From positions 1 through 40,790 of the forward strand of contig JYFJ02003497.1 in assembly GCA_000934665.2 (NCBI GenBank): a stretch of DNA of 40,790 bases. Reading direction: 5' to 3'. The notes below the pieces were generated by a model. It did no database searches. It saw only the letters and a list, made by a program, of their open reading frames with translations, and had not been told where the DNA came from. Of this stretch, positions 5,998-29,300 are shown in pieces; the first letter of the stretch is position 1, and each line of letters opens with the position of its first letter. Made by a program: the position numbers and the translations under genes. Origin of the DNA: Catajapyx aquilonaris (Eukaryota).

Positions 5998-8900
5998 TCA
6001 GTTGGAGTGGCGTCCATGTGGTGATAATCCTCCTCCACCACCTTCAGAACTGACCCTTCCGCTGTCCATCTCGCTTGAAGCACTGGAGCTGAGCGTGGTG
6101 TTGCTTCCATAAGGGTCGAGAGAGCTCTGGACGGACATGGAGCGTCCTCCTTGCACCATCCTCACTCGGTTGGGGGAGAGCTTGGTTGGGTCGACACTTG
6201 CTGGATCTGCCTGGACCAAACGGGGGGCCACGGACATTTACTCACGAACAACACATTCCGGCCTTAGAACAAACAACCAGCAAAATGGCAACAGAACATT
6301 TAATAAGGAGGAAACTGAAAATATGCTCCCAAGTAACGCACATTTTACAACAAAATTGGCCACCACCATATATAGTTTAAAACCTGCTCTCTAAACACAC
6401 CTTTTTTGTGTACTCTCTGAGAGTGTATGATCATACAATCGAATCATAAAACAATTTTATGTCAATTTGAGCCAATGTAAACACTAGTTGGAAAAATTAT
6501 CACCGATATGTTGAAGAATGAAGAAGCTGAAAGAGAGAAATCATATAAAACTCTGCAAAATGGGTCATTCAGAGAGCAAGTGTCACTCGGGAGTAAACAA
6601 AAAGACAGCAAAAAAAATATAAGCATCCTTAAGTCTACAAGAACGAAAAAAATAAAACTTGCCACTCTCCATCCTCAGCCTTTAGCCGTTTGCAAAAAGG
6701 AAATTATGAAGCCAATAGTAGCCGATGTATAGTTACACACGCAAATGCAATAAGAAGCTTCCCTTATACATGTATATAAAATTCTACCCTTCCCTCGCAG
6801 TATATCGATCATCCTTACAGGGCTTGCGAATCAAATCAGCACACTTGCATTAGACCTGTTAGCTGCATTACAGGCCCTCAAAATTGGACTGACTATAGCC
6901 TTTTTCCCAACCAGTAAACATGATCCACTGCAAATTGCAATTACACAGGCGTTTAAAAAAAATAACAAACATGAATTATACCTGGTAAGCGAGAGCGTTC
7001 ATGATGATGTGGTAAGGAACAAGGCCTAGTGGATGGATGTCCTTCATGAGCACATTTGCCGGGATTTTGTGGAACTGGATGAACTCCAGGAAGTTGGCAA
7101 TCACTTCTTTTAAAGGGGTCCCCGGATTGCTGTCGCAGTACTTTTTACCCCACATTAAAGCCGCCTGAGATAGAGAGAGAAACGAATCAGTATAGACGAT
7201 CTCAAGAAAGAAAAAATTCAGCTAAAAGATGCTGTAACTTAAAGATCGACAACCTGGAATTTGGTGAATTCGTCCGCCTTGAGCTCCTCTCTACAGAGGA
7301 TGAGACGGACCACGTGTTGCGGCAAAAGCGTGAATGATCCCAGGTTGAGCACGTCGTTCCCGTGTTCGTCCACAAACTCCAAAACCTGCGAAATATATTT
7401 TTTTAAATGTGAAAATAACTCTCAAAATCCGGATTTGTTGATCATTTTTTTGTACCTTTTGCACAAGAGATTTGGTGCACTTGTACTGGATGTATCTCTC
7501 TGCCGATGCCAACAATGCGCACACTGTGTCTACGTTTATGCAACACTGCACAAAACCGCCGCAGGCCCTTCTGAGCTCATCCAAACCGTAGTAATCGGCC
7601 GCGTTCATTACGCCTGCGAATCAATAATATTTACTTCAAGAGTTGGGAATTGGTGAGGTTGCTGTGCATTAAACTCAGCGGTCGAACCAAAGCGGCGCAT
7701 GTGCTGCACCTGATATCATTTTGACAGAATTTTCATGGTGCAATTTTTGTTTTTTGCAAAAATAGATCTTACCGAGCAAGGTTCGGGGTTGTAATGTAAC
7801 GCAGCCTGTGTGGATGTACTCTATGAGCTGGCGAAACACATCCGGTTCAAACTCCTCCACTATGAGCGTCTGGTGTTGATTCGTCTGCTGCAAAGAGTTT
7901 TAAGACATTGTGAGGAGATATGCTGAAACTCACAGGCTAATTTTGTAAAATCATAATTATAATTTAAGAGACAGGTGCTGTTGTCCTTGTGCGGTTGATC
8001 ATATGTATACACTTTAAAAAATATATTGAGTGGAAATTTCAACTGAACTTCAGCAAAATGAGTCCAAATTACTTTGATGATGACTCGAGTGAATTGGACT
8101 CAAATGTAACATGTTTTTCAATAATTTCAATGAGTAGTTAAAACCAGCACTCAATAAATATTAGAGTGTATATTTTCATACAATTATTAAGATGAGTAAA
8201 AGTCAAAATAATAATGTGCAAGAAGATTCAGTGCGCTATATGATCGGTGGGGGAAGGAAATAATATGTTTATCATATTCTCCCGATATGTTAGCAGCATG
8301 CAGTTAATTGTCTACATTTTTGCACATTTTATTTGTAATGATAATTACAGGAATCCACTGCAGTGTTGCTAATATACCTGGTGTGATACATTCTTAAAAA
8401 AACTTTCAGAAAACAGTGCATGTGGTAAACATTTCTTGGACTAGAACATAACATAATCTGAACACAAAACATGCTGCTGGCACAAACAAACATGATGTGA
8501 CATTATCACAAGTGCTGTACTGTCCTACTCAGTAAACATGTTATTACAGGTGGTACAGATTTATATTTTTTAAAAAAAGCTAAACCAGTGAACGGTGAAA
8601 ATGAGGCCAGAAACTAGGGAGGAGAGCACACAGTAAACATGCTTTCAAACTACAGCCTTTGAGCCGATACCCAAAGACCCGAACGTAATTGTAATTACAG
8701 TGTCGGTACGCACAGCAACGTCAATTTAGCAATGCAAATTATATGTGGTGCTAGCTCAACATATCATGTTATCTCCGCCGTGTAGGATTGTCATTCACAG
8801 CATTTTCCATGTTGGCCAAGCGTTGCACGTAGCATTCACGGTCCAAAGGCTGTCAACAGGCCATTAGCGGTCCTTTTATTACGATCATCTCTTCAAGCGT

Positions 8901-11900
8901 CATTAATTCAAAAAAATCTAATGGGGACAGTTGCATCGTCAATATCTGGTTAAAAGAGACCTGAAATTTGGCGCCCTACCGAGCATTTTAATGAGGTCGA
9001 TGTTGTTATTTTTCGAGGGGGGCCAACATGGAAGTTCAAAAGGTAGGCTATCCCTACTGTGGTTTTTAACTAAATGTGTCTAAACAATATATATCGAATG
9101 GAAATCAATACAATATTTTCTATTGGTGACTTCCACCCGAGTGAGTGACGGGGCCTAGTGCTTGTGTGTATAAAAAGTGGTATATATAGAAAAATATCTG
9201 TGATCCTATATAGAAAAAAAGGGGAGGGTAAAATTTTCTATCGAGCGAGCATACCTCTTGAATAGGAGCCAGCTGCTGGGTGTATCCCCGCTGCAGGAGA
9301 CACAACACAAAAAACATCAATGGCACGTAGCCTACAATTACACAGCGCAACGATCATGGAATCGGGTCTTGCTGGAAGCTTCTGGATAACACACATTGTT
9401 TTAAACAAAATAATATAATTTATATATGGGAATCGGACTGGAGGATATAGGGACACAATTGAGCGCACTTCTGCATGAGAATCATTCTTCTGATCAACTT
9501 ACAAATATTTACATGGCATTTTTTTTTGAATGAATGGATTCTCAGGCGAAGGCTAATAATTGATCACATTTCGCACAGGCATATACAAAAGGAAAAAATA
9601 ACTACACAATAATGCAACGGTGAGCTGAACGACGATGAGGGCCCATCACAAAAGGGGATCCATCAAGTGCTTGGGGAATTGTTACCTGGCTTTGCCCACT
9701 TTGCTGCAGGCAGATTATAAAGTTAGTGGTACCCCTGTCGAGGGATGAAAGTGATTAGCGATAGTTTGTTGCTTTTGGCAAGCGTCTGCCGGTACTATTA
9801 GTTTCAAAGCGTTTCACGACATTTTTAAAGCAGCGGCCAAGTACTACACCGAGCTGTACTCTTTTAGGAGCATGAACAGTTGGTTCATCTCTAAATATTT
9901 ATTCGTGTAGTTATACGTTTTCTGTGATAAGATTGCACTGTACTGTTTCATACCTGAAAGAGTTAAGCCATGCTTCTATAAATCTATGGGGTTGTTTACT
10001 ACATTTTTTTTGGCATGAACATTGCTGCAACAAGAAGAAGCAACAAAGTGCAAACGTGGTCAATGAGTTCAACTAGATGCAAGTTTTGTCTTACGGCCAA
10101 ATAGGCAGCATCTTTAATGTTATTGACGCTGAATTTTCTTTGCGACATTTACTGTGTGACTGACAACAAAATACACATGAGAATCGTACTTCCACACAAG
10201 TCGGGCCACGTGACACAAATACAACACTGAAAATTGTCTCGAACATGACGTACAGTACATGACGAGTAAATCACTCAGACAATTATTTACGCACTACATC
10301 GCAAAAATGACTCTAAACAATCGGTACACCTACACCGAATCGAGATGTTTTTATTGGCATCCCTACCTGTTGGGCAGCGTTTTGCAGATTTAATAAAGGC
10401 TCGCTGCTTCTCTTCAAGAAGAGCCGGAGTTTATTTTCCCTCTGAGGCGGATCTTTTTTTCGCTGAGGACTAGGCGTTTGGTAAAGCATCTTGAGGAACA
10501 CTCTGTGAACAAACACACACAAAAATTGCACTGTGAAGTACATACAGTATGTTTCCGTCTCTTCCGCTCCTGAAAACAATGAGGGGGCTGCATCTTTGGC
10601 AACTTCGATCGTTCACTGCATTTGCATTATACAGCCTCTGATTTGCTTTCGGTGATGCAGCAGTATGCAAGCACATTAGAAGACAGTTGGCCCCGCTGAT
10701 GAGTAACATGCAGGCGAGGAATACATGACTTAATGAAGGCTGAGCTAAATCCGGGGAGGCATCAATCATGGATACAGAGCTTCAAACCCTTCTCCCTTAT
10801 TGAGTGTACACAAAACGCCCTTTAGTGCTCGCCAATAATGATGCCAGCTCAGGAAGTGATTTTGGCAATTATTGGACTTGCTGATATTCCGCATAAGACC
10901 TGCAGTGAAGTAACCTCTCATAATAATATTCCAGAGGTAATTGTTGCTTCTCTTTAAGCAGGTTTCTGGAATCTTGCGAAGTAAGTGCTGCCAGCTCAGC
11001 CTGACAAAGACTAACCTTTTCTGCAGACAAGAAATGCTTCCAAGTCATCAAGACTGACAAACAACCCGAAAAGTGGGCGAACCGGACGCTAAATTATTCA
11101 TATATCCTCTCAACAATGTGGAATAGTGGTTTCGCCACATGCCTGCTCCTAATTAATGTAAGGTTATAAGCCGAACTCCTGGAGAGTTCCGTCCACTCTC
11201 AAAATTATTCCGGATGTGGGCTTTATTCCCTTGTAATCCTAATATTTGCACGGTGTGCGCACCTTCATTGTAAACCAGCCAACTAGGAAGCCAGTAGGTG
11301 GCAAATTGTGTTTCTCTCCCCCCCCCCCTTCTATACTACCCCCTGGAGGGAAAACAAGCCCACAGACCTATGAGCAAGGAAGTCGCACATAAATCAAAGC
11401 GAGTTGTTGACAAGCTTAGGGGCAAGCAAGCAAGCAAAGGCAACTTGATATGCTGCTATTTCTGGGGTTCCCTCCATCCATTCCCAATAAATGAAGGGAC
11501 CTTGGGGGCGACGGAAGGGAATTGAGTTATATACGCATGCCGGAGAGAGATGGGTGCAGGAAAAGGCAAAAGGAGACGCCCTGAACAGTATTATGACGTC
11601 GGAGGCCTGCTGAAAGTGGCTTCCATCGCCGCAAAACTTGTATACATGATGAAAGTTTCTTCTAATTCTCTCCGTCGGGTATTTGTCCGACCTGATAGTA
11701 CCACTATCTCCCGTGCGACTTGAGAGTGGCAGGAGTGTGCAGGGGAAGAGCGCTCCATCTATGCGTCAAGAATAGTACTACGTGGTAAATCCCAGGTCGG
11801 ACAAACATCCGATGGTTATGTTCCTATATAGAATGTATGTGGAGATGGACTGACCTACTCCTGGCGGCCAGCACTGCTTTGACGGCACAGACGGGCTCTC

Positions 11901-12051
11901 TAGTGTCACCGACGAGGAAGGTGACGTCGCAGAGCTCTGGCATGCTGGCCAGGAACTTCATGTCCTCGGCCAGCCCGCTCTTGTTCTCGAACGTGCTGAA
12001 GTCCGGCTCGTCACTTAGCGCCTCAGCCATTATTATGGCCTGCTCCAGCAT
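5998..12051 (-). CDS. gprs: BTB/POZ + BACK domain 'serine-enriched protein' (gprs-like), 8 coding exons, 389 aa
   Basis: Exons (minus): 12051-11855, 10502-10367, 9290-9255, 7887-7773, 7613-7456, 7385-7254, 7164-6982, 6210-5998. All introns are GT-AG with consistent phases; total 1170 nt. Protein: ...FENKSGLAEDMKFLASMPELCDVTFLVGDTREPVCAVKAVLAARSRVF..., EEFEPDVFRQLIEYIHTGCVTLQPRTLLGVMNAADYYGLDELR (BTB), VLEFVDEHGNDVLNLG...DEFTKFQAALMWGKKYC (BACK), then a Ser-rich tail. Confidence 0.9.
8010..8168. mobile_element. Non-autonomous DNA transposon (MITE), CACTA/EnSpm-like ends, in a gprs intron
   Basis: TA|CACTTTAAAAAATATATTGAGTG ... CACTCAATAAATATTAGAGTG|TA: imperfect ~23-bp terminal inverted repeats flanked by TA, plus an internal inverted pair TGAGTCCAA / TTGGACTCA. 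Confidence 0.6.
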
Positions 12052-13221
12052 CGGGAAGTTTCGCTGCTGAAATATGCCAACCCAGGAAAGAGGAGTGAGG
12101 AGGAATATTATTATTATTCAAGGGTCGAAATAAGGAGAAGTGATGGCGGGGGACGATGAGAGTCATGAGGAGGGAATATCAAAGGGGGTGGAGGAGGAAT
12201 GAGGGGTATAATAAAATGTGGGATGTTCTTGTGGGCGAGCGTGATGGTAGGCAAATGAGTTATGCGCCTTGGGGAATACTTTTTAAAAGATTTTCTTATG
12301 ACTGCAAGAAACTTGGCAGGCAATACAGTAAAATAAATTGAGAAGGGGGGGGGGGGGATTTACAAGTTAGTGGATTTTTCCTCCTGTTGATAAAAGCGCC
12401 TGTAAGTCAGGCCACTCCTGCGAGCAAGAGAGGCGCAACAGTTATCCCCCTGACAGGATACAATATACCCAAGGCCATTCCCTCAATCACGTTACCCCCA
12501 TTTTTTTTAAACAACAAAAAAACGAGCTTTATTTAGTCCGCAAACAACGGAAGTGTAGGAAAATGAGCATATTGATCAACCCACCGCCCCCACAGTATGT
12601 GTGTGTGACGAGAGAGAGAATATACCACATGCCATATGGGGGACTATAACACTAGGGCCATAATGTGCATTGGGCCACACATTACAGCCAGTTCATTCCG
12701 CCTAATCGCACCTGTTTATCACGCTTGTTTTTTTTCCTCCCCTTTCCAAATAAAAACAACAGGCAAGGGAGCAGTACCGGACTCTAATGGACACACTTTA
12801 TTATCCGGATGTCTTCCGGGTAGATTCATGTGAAGAAGCCAATGGGGTGTTGTTGTGATGTATCGATTTCTGAGAAACAGGAGGGGGGCGTTTTATTTTT
12901 GGAGGCAGGAAAGTGCCAATAAGCAAAGGCGGCGCATCAAGGTGAAACTAGCAAAATTGTGCAAAAAAAGGGGGGGGGGGGAGGATGTACGCAAAAAGGT
13001 GGTGGGGGAGGGGGGGGGGGTGTAGGCCAAGGACTGGATGAGTCCAAGTTTTGTTCCCAAGCTAAAATCCGGAGGCTGCATATATCGATCGGATATACAC
13101 CGGTATTTCAACAGGTGGCGTTAGAGCTTGGGTCGCTCTTATAGTTTGGTATATATAAAATATATATATGTGTGCGTGGGCGGATCAAGTACATTATGTG
13201 AGAACACACACATATACACAC

Positions 13222-17328: not shown

Positions 17329-17608
17329 ATGAAGGCTTTGGTAATACCTGCCCCACACATTTTGCGACATAGTGTCTCACCTAATCATTTTTCAGGCAGT
17401 GCTTTTCGCAGCTTTGCTGCTCGTTTCATTGGCAATGGCTCAGCGCGGGTGGGTTGGTGGACCGGACAGCCTTCCGTATTTCTTGAGAGGCGATGGTGGC
17501 AACCGAGGATATGATGGTAACAGGGGATATGGACGCCAGAACCAGGGTCGTTTCGTGGGGCAAAATGGACATGGAATATACCGTGGAGGTGGAGGAAACC
17601 GGGGTTGA
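17329..17608 (+). CDS. Small secreted Gly/Arg-rich peptide precursor (74 aa; antimicrobial-peptide-like or structural)
   Basis: Exons 17329-17340 (MKAL) and 17396-17608, joined across a 55-nt GT-AG intron: MKALAVLFAALLLVSLAMA|QRGWVGGPDSLPYFLRGDGGNRGYDGNRGYGRQNQGRFVGQNGHGIYRGGGGNRG*. Typical signal peptide, upstream TATA box, 3' UTR intron 17623-17690, AATAAA at ~17779. Confidence 0.85.
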
Positions 17609-18024
17609 GTGACATTCATTAGGTAAGTACACGTTACTCCGTTTATTATCGACCTTTTCAAGGGACTTGATGGCCAATTTCTGATTTCAGATTCTTCTCA
17701 GAGGATCGGCTTGAAAACGAGACACTTAATGCTGCGTGCGCTTGTTGTATTGTAAAACTACAGCTTCTTGAACACGATAATAAATCAGAACCATTAAGCA
17801 GTGTTTCTTTAAAAATTTTCTTGCTTGACTTTTGCATGGTACAGGATATGTTGGGTACACTACACTTTTTTGCAATGTTTGTAATCCAATTTTACACAAC
17901 ACAATGCATTTCATGAGGTAAGCTTATACCCACCTTCCGAAGCCATTCACAATGTCGAAAATCTTCTGCGTCACACTCCAATGTATGTTCCTTCATACAG
18001 TATTTCGAAACAAATCCACTGATT

Positions 18025-19803
18025 CTAAATCGGGGGAGTTAAACCCGGAGAACCATCCACAACGCTGTACCATTTTGTTAAGGTGTTTGGATGTGGCAAA
18101 GTTGACTTGAAACGTTTCCTCATATAATTGTAGGCCTTTCCTGCAAACAAAACATACCTATTGTAGTATTATTGCCAAATGTTGCGAAGATGGGCAACGT
18201 AATTTATTAAATATCAAGAAATATTGCACAAATAATATTCTGATGCAGGCCTGCATGGAAATTAAATGTTCGGATTAGTGTTGCTAGTGACCCTAGCAAA
18301 ATGCCTTTGGTCACATCGGCCGAGGCAAAGCTGTTTGAAATATTGATTTCAGCAGAGCAACATGATCTACATTCAAAGAGAGCTCTAATTTACACATGTA
18401 CCGGTACCCAATAGTTATATCTTTGCACATGAATTCCTACCAGAATACAAACGCAGGGTCAATGCAAATGCTCTGAGTTCTGGTGTATATTTTCTCCCAG
18501 TCGCAGTCTTAAGAAAGGTTGCACGTTTCAGTCGCTCAGCTGCTGGTCCGCGAAATGCATTCTGAAAGGGGGGAAAATATGTCAGGCCAAAGTACAAGAT
18601 GATGCCATTTGCTTATTGAATAATTTTTTATGGGACATTTAATCACAGCCTCTAAAAGATGTGACATACCTCAAGCAGGTCTGAATCAGCATCACTTACA
18701 AGTGATTTCTTATGTCGGGTTTTCAAAACTTCTTTCAAAACAGCAACTCGTTTTTCCAGTCGTTTATTCTTCTGAAGTAGGTTCCTGATTTGTAAACGAC
18801 TTTGGAGGTGCTCCTTATGAGCCAATAACAGACAGTTTTGCGCTTTAGTTGGGGATGACATGTCCTCCATAGTGAAGTCTCCCACGTATCTGTAGCACTT
18901 CTTTTTAGGACGAGGTGGAGCGTGACTGTCGCTTGCAACTGGCAACTCATCTCCTTCAGAACAGATGTAAGAAGAAGGTGTTTGATTCTTATCCCAATAT
19001 CCATACCAATTACCAGCACCTAAGGCCATACTTTATGACATAAATCCTAATGTTTCTCTTAAAAGTACCTGCTGAAATTGCCGATGAGCTTGGATGCGGT
19101 TGGGATGGCCTACAATCTTCACTTTCCGCAGGGTCTGGTTGAGGTTGGGATGGCCTACATTCTTCACTTTCCGCAGGATCTGGTTGAGGTTGGGATGGCC
19201 TACAATCTTCACTTTCCGCAGGGTCTGGTTGAGGTTGGGAAGGCCTACAATCTTCACTTTCCGCAGGGTCTGGTTGAGGTTGGGTTGTACATTCTACAGG
19301 TTCGGGTGCAGCAACTCGTTTTAATGCACGACGGCCCTCCCTTTTCTTAGGCAAATGTTGCGGAAAATTGAAAATCGTGGGTACAGCACCTTTCCTAAGC
19401 CAGTGCCCACCAAATCCCTCCTTATTGAAGCAATTCGGTTCAAAATGCTTCGAACAAACTTTAGTATATTTTGTTGGTGCGAATCCATCTCTTCTTATAG
19501 CAACCAACCATTGCTTCTTCACATCTGAATTGTTTGGGAAACTTTAAAAAAAAATATAGATATGCAAATAAGTAGCATATAATCTAGCTATAAAATTATT
19601 TCAATGAGACCATATGAGAAAATGCCCAAATGAACATTTGACTATTTAAATGGTATTACCCAGTACTTGTTGTACTAAACTATTTCGTTATTACCTAACA
19701 GTACTTGTTGCACTAGACTAATTTGTTATTACCTATGAAAAGTAATGTCGCTTCCTTTCGCAAATCTTTCTTTGCATGAAATTGCACAGCAACTCACGAC
19801 CAT
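18025..19803 (-). CDS. THAP-domain protein derived from a P-element/THAP9 transposase, truncated before the catalytic domain (354 aa, 5 exons)
   Basis: Exons (minus): 19803-19733, 19541-19069, 18953-18670, 18561-18441, 18140-18025. All GT-AG and phase-consistent; 1065 nt. THAP C2CH signature MVVSCCAISC...FHSFP...W...VCSKHF...LRKGAVPTIF; coiled coil IRNLLQKNKRLEKRVAVLKEVL; P-transposase motif KYTPELRAFALTLRLYSGKAYNYMRKRFKSTLPHPNTLTKWYSVVDGSPG, then a stop. Confidence 0.85.
19098..19284 (-). repeat. Coding minisatellite, 45 bp x 4 (QPQPDPAESEDCRPS) inside the THAP gene
   Basis: Units start at 19098, 19143, 19188 and 19233 (partial at 19278). They are near-identical, in frame and have no spacers. 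Confidence 0.95.
19661..19735. repeat. 38-bp tandem duplication at the THAP gene intron-1 donor
   Basis: CAGTACTTGTTGTACTAAACTATTTCGTTATTACCTA (19661-19697) and CAGTACTTGTTGCACTAGACTAATTTGTTATTACCTA (19699-19735). Confidence 0.8.
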
Positions 19804-20015
19804 TTTTTTTTTTGGCGGATCTTGTCCCATGGGTTGGCACCACCTGATCATTAGTAGCCGGTTAAATACTAATTTAAATTTAATTCAACAAATAATTAAA
19901 TAACATTATTTTGTATAACACTTAAACTATTGGGGCGGTTAATAACTTAAAGTTAAACAGGTAGATGGCAGGGCAAGCGCCATTTTTTGTTTTGTTTTTT
20001 AAAGTTGAATTCAAG
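19804..20015. promoter_or_regulatory. Short bidirectional promoter between the THAP gene and WDR12
   Basis: The two start codons are only 212 bp apart, head-to-head. AT-rich core, GGGGCGG box, CTCF-like CAGGTAGATGGCAG (19958-19971), and a YY1-like CAAGATGGCG over the WDR12 ATG. Confidence 0.65.
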
Positions 20016-21745
20016 ATGGCGTCGACTGCGAGCACTTCGTCTCAACTCCAGGCAGTTTTGTCCACCAAACAGGAAAGGTACTGCCCGTTCATACCTTCTA
20101 ATCCCACCGATTTGTCGGGAAACACTGTACAATTACGAATTACCACAATTGCGACCGTAAATTTGAGCGCATTTGGTCATTTTGAGGACGGTTATGCGTC
20201 ACCACGTGGTTGCATATGGCTAATGTCCCGGCAGGTTGTGATTATTCCTCTTTCAATCAATCAATCAATCAATCATTTTACCTCAGGGACTATTGCTCTT
20301 TAATGCGGTGGTTTATTCGGACAGGTATGCGGTTCCTGACGTCCCCTTGGCCATACCGGCGGACGTGAGCATCAAGGACCTGAGCTCCATAGTCAACAGG
20401 CTGCTACAAGGTAAGCCGTTTGCAGCCGGATTGATTCCAGTTGATTGATCGTTGCAATTTTCATTTTTAATAGAAAGCAGAGATGAGCATCAGGAGATTG
20501 AGTTTGATTTCTTGGTCGGCGGAGAATTCTTGCGTGTGCCGCTTTCGGAGCATCTCCAGGAACGGGATCTGTCCTCGGAGGATGTGGTGTCTATTGAGTA
20601 TCTGGAGAGACTCCCTGCGCCTGAGCCGGAGGATTGCCTGCATCATGACGATTGGGTGTCCGCGGTTAGGTGCCAAGGAGATTGGATCTTGTCTGGAAGC
20701 TACGACAACTCGCTTCACTTGTGGACTACGAGGGGGAAGCATCGTTTGGCCATTCCAGGGCATATGGAACCGGTCACGGCTGTTACTTGGGTCAAACATG
20801 AAGGAGACATTGCTAGTTTCATCAGGTTCGCATTGACGTAGAAAGCCTTTTGATTTGCTTTTCTCTACAATTGCTATTTTCCAGCACATCTCAAGACCAG
20901 ACGGCAATGGTGTGGCGCTGGAATCTGGAGCAGAACTCCGTTGAGTGTGTTCAGGTATGTCGCGGCCACCAGCGTAGCGTACAGTGTGTGGGCGTGGATC
21001 CGACTAGTACGCACATGGCCACCGGCAGCTGGGACAACATGCTGAAGATATGGGGTCTTGACGATAGCCCTGAAAACCTCGACAGCAACGAGAGTAGCGG
21101 AATCACACCCTCCAAAAAGAGGCGTCTGGATGCCAACACACGTGTCCCAATCCTGACATTGCAAGGACACAAGGAGTGTGTGTCTGGCTTGGTCTGGATT
21201 GATTCGTCCCAGATATGCACATGCAGTTGGGATCACACGTTGAGGGTGTGGGACGTGTCGACCCAGAGCAAATCTGGTGGAAGTAAACTGGAGCTGCCTG
21301 GAAACAAAGCGTTTATGGATTTGTGCTGGACGCGCCACAACCCACACTGTGTGCTGACAGCATCGGCTGACTCTTTGGTGCGCATGTATGACGTGCGGTC
21401 TGTTGACGGATCTGTTGTGAAAGCAAGTTTCAAGTCTCACAAAGGATGGGTGTCTCAAGTATGTTGGGCTGAAGACGATCCGAATCTGTTTGTGTCCGCT
21501 GCTTTCGACATGCTCATGAAGATGTGGGACATCAGGAGGTGAGTTGTTGCTTGCCATACCATGAATTTGGGTGTATCTGTACCGCTAACATGTGATATTT
21601 CAGCCCCAAGGCTCCGCTGTACGACATGACTGGACACCGCGACAAGATAATGTGCTGTGACTGGAGTAATCCAGAGCTGATGATGTCGGGAGGTGCCGAT
21701 AACATGATCAGGATTTACAGCCGCAAGACAGGCCAACAAATATGA
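20016..21745 (+). CDS. WDR12: Ribosome biogenesis protein WDR12/Ytm1 (NLE/ubiquitin-like domain + WD40 repeats; PeBoW complex), 431 aa
   Basis: Exons 20016-20077, 20325-20410, 20474-20825, 20885-21538, 21604-21745 (1296 nt, GT-AG, phase-consistent). Motifs: [68 protein letters not shown]. Confidence 0.95.
20253..20275. repeat. (TCAA)n microsatellite in WDR12 intron 1
   Basis: Five full TCAA units plus a partial one. Confidence 0.8.
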
Positions 21746-22189: not shown

Positions 22190-25100
22190 TATCATGAGCA
22201 ATGCCTTGAACACCAGTTTACCTTCTCGGCATTCTGTGTTTTTTTTTCTCTCTTCTAAATCCAACCCTTTTACAATCCTCTTTCCCCACATTCATTGTTC
22301 CTTTTTTTAAAATCCTTTCTACCCACTCCTTTTTGACCCCTGACCCATCCCTACCCAGACCCCCATCCCCACACCAAAAAAAAAAATGAACAAAAAATTT
22401 TTCTCTTCACAAAGAAAAAAACCCTAACAGAAGACTTTACACAGAACCCAAAGGCCCAGGGGGGGGGAAACAAGCCCAAGGTAGTTTTCAATATTTTTGT
22501 AGTTTTTTTTTTGTAGTTTTTCCATCAAATATTTTTTTTTCTTATTTCACTCACTTGGTAGTTTTCATGCACCTGAAGCTTGTTTCCAAACTTCAATTGT
22601 CCGTGCAAGTGGGTGGTATGATACGTTGCACATGCACAATCTTTTTCCTTTAGAGTCCGACTTGACGTCTCGACTGCTCACTTACATACCACCCACTTGC
22701 ACCATACATCGCTCCCTGGATAGGGAAGACTGGAATGCAGACACCACCACACAGGCAAAGTCCGTTTTGTTCTTTGCACACTGGTTCAATGCTCTTTACA
22801 TTGAAGCTCAAAAAAATCTTTTTATCTTTTTTTTTATCTTTTTTTGGTGGAGGCAAGTGTATAATATTTTTTTTTGCATTTTTCCCAACATTTTTTCTTT
22901 TTTTGTACAGAACTGCAATTTTTTTTAAAATTCCCTAAAGGAGGCTGAAACATAGTATGGAATTTGTGTTGATATTTACAAGGAACTAGGTTCTTTCATA
23001 CACCTACTTCTTCTAAGCCTGCACGGTCTCATTAAATATGGTAGTTATTATTATTATTCTTTTTTTTTGTTTAAAGTCTACGAGTTGTTCGCTACGTAAA
23101 CACTTCACCTCAAGTTTTCGTGAAGTCTTGTTTTGCATAGGCTTTGATGTCAACATGATGACAATGAGGTGTAATTAACATCTAGAATATAAATAACACT
23201 GGCTCTTGTTTGCAAAAATTGTAACAAAATAGTTTCTCTCGATTACGTAGTTTTTTCATCTAAAGCTCCTGTCTAAAACGGGCATTTTTAAAACTTCTCT
23301 CTCACATTCACTCTCTCTCTCTTTGTTTTTTACAGTTATCTATATACTTATTTTGGAACCAATGCCCTGCTAGGATCCCCAACAAGGCTGGGAGGAAAAA
23401 GTATAAAAACCAAACAGATTGGGGGGAGGAGGGGGGGATTTTATTACAAGACGGCGAGAGAAATTGGGGAAGGGAAGAACGTAACGAAGAACTAAGGGCA
23501 CTTTGGCTTTGGCAAATGCCCCTGGACAAACTCACAATACCCGACAAAACCCCCCCNAAGACTCTAGCTCTATCTGCCGTGCCTTTACAAGAGGGGAAAC
23601 AATCCATTGAACCGTCACCGTCCCCCCAAAAAGTGTTTTTTTTTTTCTCCAACAATCCTAGGACACTATGGCTCAGCCTCCCAAAAAAAAAATTATAACA
23701 ACAAAAGCATTTTGACAATCTACCAGCACTATTACCTATGTTATCTAGCTATAACTACCTACTTAGTAATCCTAAAATCTTTAAAATCTACCTCATTTTT
23801 TTTCTTCATCTTTTCACATCTAGAACTCACAAGGACAAGACAACCAACACTGCACACAGTTTCTTGACAAAAAGACATGAAAATGTAAAACTCAAAAAAG
23901 AAAAGAAAAAAAAACAACTCGTAATCTAGATTTACGACACAATTCAACTTTTTTTTTTTCTTCTTCTTCTTTGCTGTTATCGATATGTGAAGCACAAGGG
24001 CTTTTATTTGCACGGGATGGGATTGGGGACTGGATCGAGCAAAAATCGGGAGATTGGGAAGTTTACAGCATGTTTCATGCTGCGTTTAAAAAAAACAAAA
24101 CAAATGAGAAAACAACAGCACTCAAGCTTCACATAAAGATATCATTTGCAAACTATCTAACCCTAAGTGTCTGTTCATTTCTTTTTTTCTTCTTCATCTA
24201 AACTACACTTTTTTATACACTACAGTTCAATACTTCGCAAACTTGCTTCTTTTCCTATGATCTTGTGTTACTCTTGTCACTTCTCCTCTTCTTTTTATTC
24301 CTTCAGTCCTGTTTTGATGCAAGTTTCGCACTGAGGAGGACAAGTTTTCATCTTCATTGAGGTTGCATATTTTGCCGCCGCAACAGTTTTTTTTTTTTTA
24401 GTCCCATAACTCAAGCGTCTTGTTTTGTTGTTGTTTTGTTTACCAGAGGTCTACAAATATGTCTGCTATATGTAAACACACGGCATCTTTACACACAAGT
24501 AGTTTTGTCATCTTAAAAATATCCATTATCCCATCAAATTCTGTTGTACCAAAATAAACTAAATCTTTTTAGTTAACAGTAAAATCTTTCAATATTTTGT
24601 AGCTCAACTACTGCACCTGAAACAATACAAAGTGCACGATATCAAGACCAGACATAAAAAGGGAAAAAAATGTACAGTTGAGAGGTTTGGGGTCAAGGGT
24701 TGGGTTGCGGGGAGAAAAATCGCGGCAAAAGACCAAAGAAAAATAACGTAATCAAATCCCTGCTTTTCGATTTCTGGTGGGGTTTTTTTTTTGGTGTGTT
24801 TTTGTTTCAGAACTTCAATCCCATCCTCAAAAATTTCATCCTCTGTGGCACTCGTTTCCATCACCACCACACGCAATAATATAGTAATATAAAAAAAAGT
24901 GGTCACACGTCAGTTTCTTTTTCAATCTGTACGCTGTGCACCTCATTTCACTTGTGGCGATCTCTCTCATCTGCAAAGTCACTTTTACAAGGGTGCATTT
25001 CTTCAACGGAGAGACCAAAAAAAAAAAAAGTTACAGAAAAGAAAAACAAATGTATAAAACGTCTCTTCAGAAAAAATTTCCTGTACTGTACAATCCATTG

Positions 25101-26376: not shown

Positions 26377-29300
26377 TTACTTGGCAACTTGTGCTTGATA
26401 GGCTTGGTACTGCTCTTCAGATGTGGCATTTGAGGTCTGATTCGGATCCCCTTCCGGCAGTGGAAGGGTTGGGATGATTGGTTGCGGTTGTCCCGCAAAT
26501 ATGTAGGGGTGGGGTCCCGACGCCAGGTACTGAAAAAGCAGCGTCTATGAGCATCAGGAGAAACAAAAATAAAGATTGTGATCAAAATGTAGGCCCAGTG
26601 TTGTATCAACACAAATTAAGAGATCATCATCCACGTGTTCAAAACACAATCCGATATTTTCTCCTTAATTTCGGTTGACGCAACCGACCCTCAAAGACTA
26701 GAACAGTCGCAACAATTCCAGAAGTCGCACATTAAACGGGGGTTTCTGTCCCTTTTGGCAGTGCAAGTTCTGGAAAGTTGACTGTTTATTCAGTAAGCAT
26801 GAAATTAAATGCAGACCGATCCTGGAGTTCCGAGCTGCAAGGCTGACATTTGAGTCGGAAGTTGCTGCAGCATGTGACTGTAATGCACAGACGCAGGATC
26901 CATTGTGGTCGGCAGCACCTGTTATTTTTTTTTAGAGAGAAGAAAATTTGATGACACACACGTACAGAGATGCGGCACTGGGCAAAAACAGGATGCTCTG
27001 CCAACAATAATTAACAAATTGTGGAACCATCCGTCACCTTGAGCCAATGGAAGTTGTTATCATTAAGTGCAAGCCATGTTTTGATTAATGTTGGTAAGCA
27101 TCATGTTGTTCACCCTTAGTGTATTAGCCACTGAATTAGCCATGTTTTTGTTTGTCTGTTGTTAACCGCTCGACTCACCTCCACCTGTTGAATGTGTGGT
27201 GGTTGCATGATGTATTGCTGAGGCATCCAAGGAGTGCTGGGCAGGGAATAGCTTGGTACTTGAGGGCTAAAGTGCCGGCTAAACTGGTGATGGTTCACAG
27301 CAGGCAGCATCTGCGGGGCAACCCCATTCTGGGGCAGGACATTGGGGTCATAGGTCACAGGAGTTCCCTGTCAACCACCACCACGTCATTAGGGTCATAC
27401 ACTCTCAGAATCCAAACACCACATAAAAAAGGATCTACAATTTTTCTACTTGTCCGTTAGGTGCTCCTGACTAGAACGCAATCCAAAAAAATTAACGATG
27501 CTCTATAAACAGCATGAGAGAGCAGAATCAATATTTGCTCATGATTAGGAAGCGACTGTGATCAGGATAGGAATGCAATCGAGGAAGAAACTGGATTGCC
27601 TAATTTAATCAAAAGCTAAGTATTGACTTCCTGGTCTCCCACTTGAAAGCATGCTTCGAGGTCCTTAGAAAAAAGGAATCGAAAGAGACAGAAGGATATG
27701 CCACGAGAAAAAAGTCTCTTCTCTCCGGCCTTCTACTAAAATGTGCACTACATTACGCTAATTGCTACTGTTACTGATTAGTGCTCCCCCCCCACATGTA
27801 ATTTCTGTGATTACTTTGGCATTAGATTCCTGAGCGCAATGTGAGCCATGCTACTGTGATCTACAATAACTACTCCACCAAATTAAAATTGCTTACAATG
27901 TTATCAGCAAACCCAATCATCTTGGCAAAACTAAGGTACACTGTTACTGCCAAGAGCAAACCAAACGAAGCAAATGTACCACACCTTGAAGGCGTGAGGA
28001 CAAATGCTCACCTCGCCGTCCCTCCACATCCGCTGGTCCTGATTCTTGTACTGGTTTCTCTTCTTGTTACCGCCATCAGCAAATTTTACTAAAAGGGGTT
28101 CTTTGCAGGCAGGGAGTTTGAAACCATTAAACTTAAGGATAATTTCCTCACACTTCTCCTTTGACTCCATTCTGAAATGAAATTTCTCATTAGATTTTGT
28201 ACAAGTGAAATAAACGGCAGTGTTTTTTATATATTTAAAAACACATACCTTGCAAACCCTACTCCTCTACTTTGGCTTTTGGCATCGCGCAGAATCCTGG
28301 TGGAAATCACCTGACCATGAGATCGAAGCAGCTCCTCTAACTGACTTTCCTCGTAATAGAGCGGGAGGTTCGCAATGTACAAGTTGGTAGGGTCCTGCTC
28401 TTGTTGCTGGAAACAAAAGACCTTCAATTTGTCAAGCACATATGATTCACATCTGTGCTGTTCCACTGCAAAGAATATAATAAACATAGGTTGTAAAGCA
28501 ACCTCCAATTTACCTTTGCCATCTGGGCCTGCATGCCCCTGCTCTGTAGCACTCGCACAGCATTCTCGGCCGCTACGGGAGATTCAAAGTCAACAAATCC
28601 GTAACCTGAAACAGAAAATACAGCAATTAATCGAATGCAAATAAGACGCAATAAAATGGCTGGCTCAACGATGCTCACCTTTACACTTGTTAGTATTCTT
28701 GTCCAATATTGCCTTTGTCGATATGATGTTCCCAAATCTGTGGAGCAGAATTTGTTAGTACAATCCGTGTGCACTGCTACACGATCTGAGGGACACTTAC
28801 TCTTTGCATAAATTAACCAAGTCCTTGTCTGTGGTGTTTTGAGGGAGGCCACGAATGTACAGGTTGGTTTTGGAGAGCTGCTCTCCGCTGCTGATGCTGG
28901 AGTTGGGAGTGGTGGTAGGAGTCGAGCCACCCTGAGAACCTGTGTTGTTGAGGTTGGTGATTGCTGATGGGGAAGCGGCAGTTGGAACACGTTGGCTGGG
29001 CGTGTATGTCTGCTGAGAAGAAGAGAACGTGAAGGGGAATGTTCAAACACGGCACACGTAACAACACTGTCAACAAGCCTATGTGCAAAAAGCACGGCAC
29101 ATACAGGAACTCTATCCACGGCTGTCCAGCACAAGTCACTCATGTGCTGCAGCATTTCTTTCCGTAGAGTATATTACAAATTCTCTAGAAAGTGCTTGGA
29201 ATGAAAGACTACGAATAAGGATAAGGACGGGTCAAATCAGGCATTTGTTTTCAGGGTCAGAAGAGTCACTTCCAGTTCAATCTCACTGATAGCTATTCTG

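Follow-up and report, generated by a model that had tools for sequence, protein, structure and literature searches.

Truncated transposases that repress the family they come from (KP and the 66-kDa repressor) and stationary genes derived from P elements are textbook subjects, described almost entirely from Drosophila and vertebrates. The 66-kDa repressor arises by intron retention. Besides the montium group of Drosophila, the obscura group also carries a stationary P neogene, and for the neogenes of both groups orthology across species and expression have been shown. According to a review, P transposase consists of six domains, i.e., a THAP domain, a coiled-coil region, a helix-turn-helix (HTH) domain, a split RNase H domain that carries a GTP-binding insertion, and a C-terminal domain (PMC7776569). 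The same review gives KP a length of 207 aa, places the HTH domain in contact with the terminal inverted repeat (TIR) at its inner half, and describes the 66-kDa repressor as lacking just the C-terminal third of the transposase (PMC7776569). The stationary P gene of the montium group may encode a 66-kDa-like protein, judging from the title of Nouaud and Anxolabehere (1997) as cited in PMC8434751. According to a preprint, both full-length and amino-terminal truncated THAP9 and P transposase have been examined for oligomerisation (bioRxiv 10.1101/2020.10.06.328815).

We analyzed a 40,790-nt stretch of the genome of Catajapyx aquilonaris (contig JYFJ02003497.1, assembly GCA_000934665.2), hereafter the window, which contains a gene that resembles these systems. 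The original prediction described it as an intact, spliced P-element/THAP9-derived gene that stops before the transposase catalytic core. The sequence comparisons give firm support both to the origin of the gene from a P/THAP9-type transposase and to its having been cleanly cut short ahead of the catalytic core. Whether it is best read as a gene retained by the host is weighed below.

Gene structure and encoded domains

The gene lies on the minus strand and runs from 19803 to 18025; its five exons join into one open frame and all introns are of the GT..AG type. Exon 1 (19733..19803) starts with the ATG at 19803-19801, contributes 71 coding nucleotides and encodes the first half of the THAP zinc finger, including the first two cysteines of the C2CH set. 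It ends in the donor AG/GTAATA, and tblastn with residues 1-23 of the crayfish relative P0015 found 70% identity in it. Intron 1 (19542..19732; 191 nt, GC 0.27) splits the THAP domain where P0015 runs continuous. In intron 1, a 38-nt sequence is tandemly duplicated (two copies, 19661-19735), which repeats the donor TAG/GTAATAAC and thereby creates a second, out-of-frame donor 38 nt downstream. Exon 2 (19069..19541) completes the THAP domain, contributing CxxH and the AVPTIF motif with its second half, and then encodes a Pro/Gln/acidic linker with four 15-aa repeats. At the DNA level these form an in-frame tandem array (19091..19284, minus strand) of a 45-nt unit in 4.3 copies with 95% matches; among the four full units, two changes are synonymous and one is conservative.

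Intron 2 (18954..19068, minus strand) lies in the variable linker and has its donor at 19068. With the acceptor at 19020, the intron is 49 nt long, has a weak pyrimidine tract and gives a protein of 376 aa, and with the acceptor at 18954 it is 115 nt long, has a good pyrimidine tract and gives exactly the 354 aa that had been predicted. Because 24 in-frame GT..AG combinations are possible in the linker around this intron, its junction is not fixed; the choice of acceptor affects no domain. The junctions of introns 1, 3 and 4 are backed by homology.

Exon 3 (18670..19019, start maybe at 18953; minus strand) encodes a basic patch, a conserved YxGDF...SPTKA segment and a long helix that corresponds to the coiled-coil (leucine-zipper) region of P-type transposases. 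Intron 3 (18562..18669, minus strand) has 108 nt, a multiple of three, and contains an in-frame stop six codons in. Its retention would give a protein with a THAP domain and a coiled coil and no HTH domain, which is the layout of many arthropod 'THAP1-like' proteins. At exactly this position, 16 of the 25 aligned relatives, which are mostly unspliced ORFs from short contigs, read through with a valine (GTN codon), suggesting that intron 3 is a family-wide feature. Since the position is common to the family, the introns say nothing on host origin. Exon 4 (18441..18561, minus strand) encodes the first half of the P-transposase HTH domain (PF12017, E 1.7e-5, profile positions 24-51 of 73), and intron 4 (18141..18440, minus strand; 300 nt) splits this domain: the Pfam profile runs from 51 to 53 across the intron, and the alignment to the relatives P0006, P0008 and P0014 is gap-free there. 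Exon 5 (18025..18140, minus strand) completes the HTH domain (PF12017, E 1.4e-7, profile 53-73) and adds 13 further residues before the TAG at 18027-18025. In tblastn, P0006, P0008 and P0014 matched with 54-59% identity over 18147-18037, and the homology of the full-length relatives ends here.

In the spliced protein, a THAP domain is followed by the coiled coil and then by the PF12017 HTH domain. The THAP match (PF05485) lies in exon 2 with E 3.8e-11 and covers positions 23-87 of the 87-position profile; in a motif search of the spliced protein, the C2CH ligands and AVPTIF both proved intact. The two halves of PF12017 in exons 4 and 5 are collinear and each scores above the Pfam curated cut-off. 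Exon 3 matched no Pfam family. When it was modeled with AlphaFold2 together with 25 relatives, exon-3 residues 56-103 formed one 48-residue helix with block-mean pLDDT values of 89-98. This predicted helix and the homology to P-type transposases suggest that the protein pairs as a dimer via the coiled coil. The THAP finger, the repeat linker and the coiled coil of the prediction are thus all present, and the Pfam analysis of the spliced protein gave the expected outcome, with THAP and the P-transposase HTH domain found and RNase H absent. THAP1-like host proteins carry an HCF-1 binding motif, [DE]HxY, and a regular-expression search of the spliced protein detected no such motif between the THAP domain and the coiled coil.

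A public read run of unknown library type contains 0.44 of the sampled words of 18025-19803, a region of which exons make up about 0.6. Four DNA-type runs, all from one sample, contain 0.93-0.97 of the sampled words.

Relatives of the protein and the position of its end

An HMMER scan of 1.84 billion representative sequences with exon 3 returned 75 matches at E <= 0.001, four of them at E <= 1e-10. The best were 45-47% identical, and one of the 75, a bacterial surface protein, is probably spurious. Recognizable THAP domains occur in 18 of these relatives, PF12017 in six, the RNase H N-terminal part and the GTP-binding insertion in two each, and the RNase H C-terminal part in one. Where a source is named, it is in most cases a spider or an insect and in one case a crayfish; among invertebrates, THAP9-type homologues are likewise most frequent in arachnids according to a 2026 preprint (10.64898/2026.08.31.747927). 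In P0006, P0008, P0014 and P0015 the coiled-coil segment directly precedes PF12017. P0006, from the spider Larinioides, continues after its exon-3-like segment with the HTH domain, the RNase H N-terminal part (PF21787) and the GTP-binding domain (PF21788), and P0014 from Araneus has the same order up to PF21787. The spliced protein is 47% identical to P0014 over 156 aa (E 3e-40) and 45% identical to P0006 over 154 aa (E 5e-35), with a ceiling of about 55% identity to any relative. The THAP domain and the split PF12017, found in this order, together with the E-value of 3e-40 to P0014, bear out the proposed P/THAP9 transposase origin. Likewise, the claim that the last segment resembles the region just before RNase H in P/THAP9 proteins agrees with the PF12017 HTH match and with the 45-47% identity to relatives that continue into RNase H. 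Of the columns that are invariant in five relatives, the Catajapyx protein keeps 35 of 40, as compared with 17 of 53 variable columns; this pattern of conserved residues could date from the active transposon phase.

An orthologue was not found in word-indexed protein searches, in the HMMER scan of 1.84 billion representatives or in a metagenome scan. The word-indexed searches with exons 3, 2 and 4 matched no longer protein, and the metagenome scan with exon 3 gave 595 pattern matches and no confirmed one. In the ESM Atlas, exon 3 retrieved generic coiled-coil look-alikes only, below recognition level. PDB searches with exons 5 and 4 singly produced no real match, the identity to the Drosophila protein being too low for direct detection.

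The sole protein found with the same truncated layout is P0015 (XP_069181919.1), a 566-aa protein of the crayfish Procambarus clarkii. Its database name, 'THAP domain-containing protein 5-like', is misleading, as the protein is the front end of a P transposase with THAP, coiled coil and PF12017, and its tail resembles repeats of the short segment that normally opens the RNase H domain. Orthology between the two genes was considered and found no support: in a tree of 19 rows and 211 columns covering THAP and the coiled coil, P0015 is not sister to the Catajapyx gene, which groups with spider sequences and one dragonfly sequence (support 88/86). We read the two as putative parallel truncations. 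Spider annotations frequently include relatives that are truncated or have internal deletions (P0003, P0008, P0009), which makes truncation the usual decay route of P-like elements. In the annotated spider proteins P0003, P0009 and P0013, the coiled-coil exon is in every case fused directly at the intron-3 position, either with C-terminal parts of the transposase or with an exon of an alcohol dehydrogenase; these proteins represent internal-deletion elements or else gene models that are chimeric.

The end of the protein was placed on the Drosophila transposase through P0006, which aligns to it (PDB 6p5a) with E 9e-18. Residues WY 189-190 of P0006 stand opposite Drosophila residues 195-196, and its CALMVDEM segment stands opposite the segment with D230. 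Since the Catajapyx protein continues for 13 residues after its own WY, its end corresponds to about Drosophila residue 209, i.e., 21 residues before the catalytic D230, and it therefore has the module set and the approximate length of the 207-aa KP repressor. A protein of this predicted extent cannot cut or join DNA. It ends a few residues past the end of homology and has no tail of its own, which we counted against the reading of retention by the host. After the SPG codons of exon 5 both frames reach stops. The +2 frame there (17993-18050, minus strand) gives 17 more codons that start with GF and faintly resemble the PGFT... continuation of the family; they may be the last trace, shifted out of frame, of the RNase H N-terminus.

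Missing transposon parts and genomic setting

When all 75 relatives were compared with the 40.8-kb window by tblastn, 374 alignments were obtained, and the best one outside the gene had E 0.025. For residues 200-567 of P0006, nothing in the window was better than E 1.5. A Pfam scan of 300 of the 321 stop-to-stop ORFs of at least 55 aa detected no transposase catalytic domain; the ORFs left out were four over 22337-22925 and 17 beyond 38955. Neither tblastn with the 75 relatives nor Pfam over these 300 ORFs revealed remnants of the RNase H, GTP-binding or C-terminal parts in the window, in agreement with the predicted lack of downstream catalytic coding sequence. The weak match with E 0.025, at 9591-9788, was discarded because no THAP-like ORF exists at that place. 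Flanking inverted repeats were not found either, the repeat finder giving just short AT-rich or implausible pairs. In a flank-to-flank TIR scan the best match was 12/16, a score reached by 97 of 100 shuffles, which upholds the predicted absence of TIRs. One candidate TIR pair (17799-17816 and 20110-20127) was rejected: it would enclose exon 1 of WDR12, it is 78% complementary, and by eye the flanking 8-mers differ.

The site is compact and lies between CRNKL1 and WDR12. The upstream neighbor, on the opposite strand and head-to-head, is WDR12, as had been proposed; its start codon is at 20017, and it is identified by NLE and WD40 domains and by a match to human WDR12 (E 1e-52). The start codons of the two genes are separated by a divergent interval of 213 bp (19804..20016), which is presumed to be a shared promoter region. 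Downstream and tail-to-tail lies CRNKL1 (crooked neck; E 2e-199), whose stop codon is at 17606-17608; the spacer between the two genes (17609..18024) holds no transposase remnant. A plus-strand AATAAA for CRNKL1 occurs at 17779, so that, allowing for a short cleavage-site distance, its 3' end is about 225 bp from the stop codon of the transposase-derived gene, consistent with the prediction that the next gene ends within some 250 bp. The sole canonical minus-strand AATAAA after that stop codon is at 17647, with none within 378 nt of the stop, and because of this the 3' ends of the two genes would overlap. Directly after the CRNKL1 stop codon (17606-17630) there is a perfect donor-like AG/GTAAGT, which could mark a CRNKL1 3'-UTR intron or an alternative C-terminus of its Gly/Arg-rich tail.

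The GC3 of the transposase-derived gene is 0.345, against 0.60-0.65 in both neighbors, and is like the overall GC of the local introns (0.27-0.37). Two ORFs with parts of a BTB/POZ domain (E 5e-4 and 1e-3) and one exon with an RRM (E 8e-9), at 7678-12117 and 28230-28583 on the minus strand, indicate further genes in the window. No transposon domains were found elsewhere among the scanned ORFs of the window.

Retention by the host and comparison with known systems

The explanation that we favor is that an arthropod P-element/THAP9-type transposase gene became immobile at this site and that its front end alone was retained by the host, as a candidate repressor or regulator. We give this about an even chance of being correct. 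The copy keeps its THAP zinc finger, repeat linker, coiled coil and HTH domain and has lost everything from the RNase H core onward, along with the terminal repeats. Transcription would start from the 213-bp interval shared with WDR12, and the product would pair through its coiled coil and bind specific DNA through its THAP and HTH domains. As a repressor or regulator, it might then occupy binding sites that belong to related P-like elements or poison the transposase of these elements, or else it might act at host sites. Retention, as opposed to decay, is suggested by the fact that 354-376 codons and eight splice sites are intact despite the loss of both ends and two thirds of the gene, a loss that must have taken two or more separate rearrangements. 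The 35 of 40 invariant columns that are kept, the intact THAP ligands and AVPTIF motif and the confidently predicted helix are further signs of constraint. When the other compared windows of the same genome were searched by DNA words, nothing similar turned up, which is a weak test because these are a small part of it. An old, well-adapted host gene is made less likely by three results: the GC3 of 0.345, the identity of at most about 55% to any relative, and the finding that the crayfish protein of the same layout is not a sister. From the sequence alone, domestication is a reasonable reading and the locus a candidate neogene, with the balance near the middle. A narrower version holds that a P-like element at the WDR12 promoter was cut down to THAP, zipper and HTH and became a fixed, constitutively expressed KP-type repressor that guards against P/THAP9-like elements, which are common among arthropods. 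We regard this more specific role as rather unlikely. If it were true, the gene would be a natural, fixed counterpart of Drosophila KP with an origin separate from those of the Drosophila neogenes and the crayfish look-alike.

The main rival to host retention is a young non-functional relic, in which a P-like element inserted beside the WDR12 promoter, deletions took the 3' two thirds and both ends, and disabling mutations are yet to come. Its intron-like GC3 (0.345) and poor poly(A) signals would fit such a history, as would the near-identical 45-nt repeats, which show recent change. The introns would have been inherited from the family, truncated and internally deleted relatives are frequent, and the protein and metagenome searches found no orthologue. 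On the other hand, a relic would have to have preserved a frame of 354-376 codons and eight good splice sites through at least two rearrangements, and similar DNA is missing from the other compared windows, a weak test given the small part of the genome that they represent. A relic is possible, and we entertain it tentatively.

Two other explanations concern the ends of the gene. The model may be incomplete, with further 3' exons beyond view or an alternative splice within exon 5 that adds another C-terminus: there is a GT after the SPG codons in exon 5, the next frame offers 17 more codons faintly like the family continuation, and the 3' end is undefined. Nevertheless, tblastn and Pfam found no RNase H, GTP-binding or C-terminal homology in the 40.8-kb window, and the downstream 18 kb on the minus strand are occupied by CRNKL1 and the BTB gene, so we hold an incomplete model to be very unlikely. 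The KP-like protein content would also suit a non-autonomous element that is still mobile and has terminal repeats so short or so diverged that they escape detection. Such mobility is hardly credible in view of inverted repeats in the flanks that do not exceed chance, the lack, by eye, of a target duplication at the one candidate pair, and the tight spacing of only 213 bp to the WDR12 start codon and about 225 bp to the CRNKL1 3' end. Moreover, the gene has no C-terminal coding remnant, unlike the internal-deletion forms P0003 and P0009.

Among known systems, the KP and 66-kDa repressors share with the Catajapyx protein the architecture of a truncated P-type transposase with THAP and a dimerising coiled coil and without a complete catalytic core. 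The 66-kDa repressor is much longer, and the predicted protein is KP-like in module content and length, which makes repression a candidate role. KP, however, derives from an internally deleted, still mobile element with TIRs, whereas no TIRs were found around the Catajapyx gene. In being immobile, truncated, without terminal repeats and maybe encoding a repressor-like protein, the gene resembles the stationary P neogenes known from the montium and obscura groups of Drosophila. The product of the montium gene may be 66-kDa-like as far as the title of its description tells, whereas the present gene stops earlier, directly after the HTH domain, and belongs to a different arthropod lineage.

Closest in layout is the crayfish P0015, which likewise has a THAP domain, a repetitive linker, a coiled coil and the PF12017 HTH domain and lacks RNase H. 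Identity is 55% in THAP and 44% in the coiled coil and HTH, but P0015 differs in its 566-aa length, its unrelated linker and its own tail of about 100 aa. The arthropod 'THAP1-like' proteins (Ischnura XP_046400287.1, Rhopalosiphum XP_060836229.1) share the THAP domain, the YxGDF...SPTKA segment and the coiled coil and are without the PF12017 HTH domain. Human THAP9 derives, like the gene described here, from a P-type transposase and is a single stationary gene, as the Catajapyx gene would be; THAP9 keeps RNase H and the GTP-binding domain, whereas the Catajapyx gene has lost both. Similar partial copies occur in many arthropod genomes, and the locus is a well-defined candidate rather than a demonstrated neogene. 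Should host retention be correct, its two DNA-binding modules plus zipper would make the gene a compact test case, and if the gene is fixed and host-driven, a KP-sized gene in another arthropod would imply that the route from transposase to repressor or new transcription factor recurs. The kind of gene is already known from KP-type proteins and stationary P neogenes, and the Catajapyx gene adds a further member to it.
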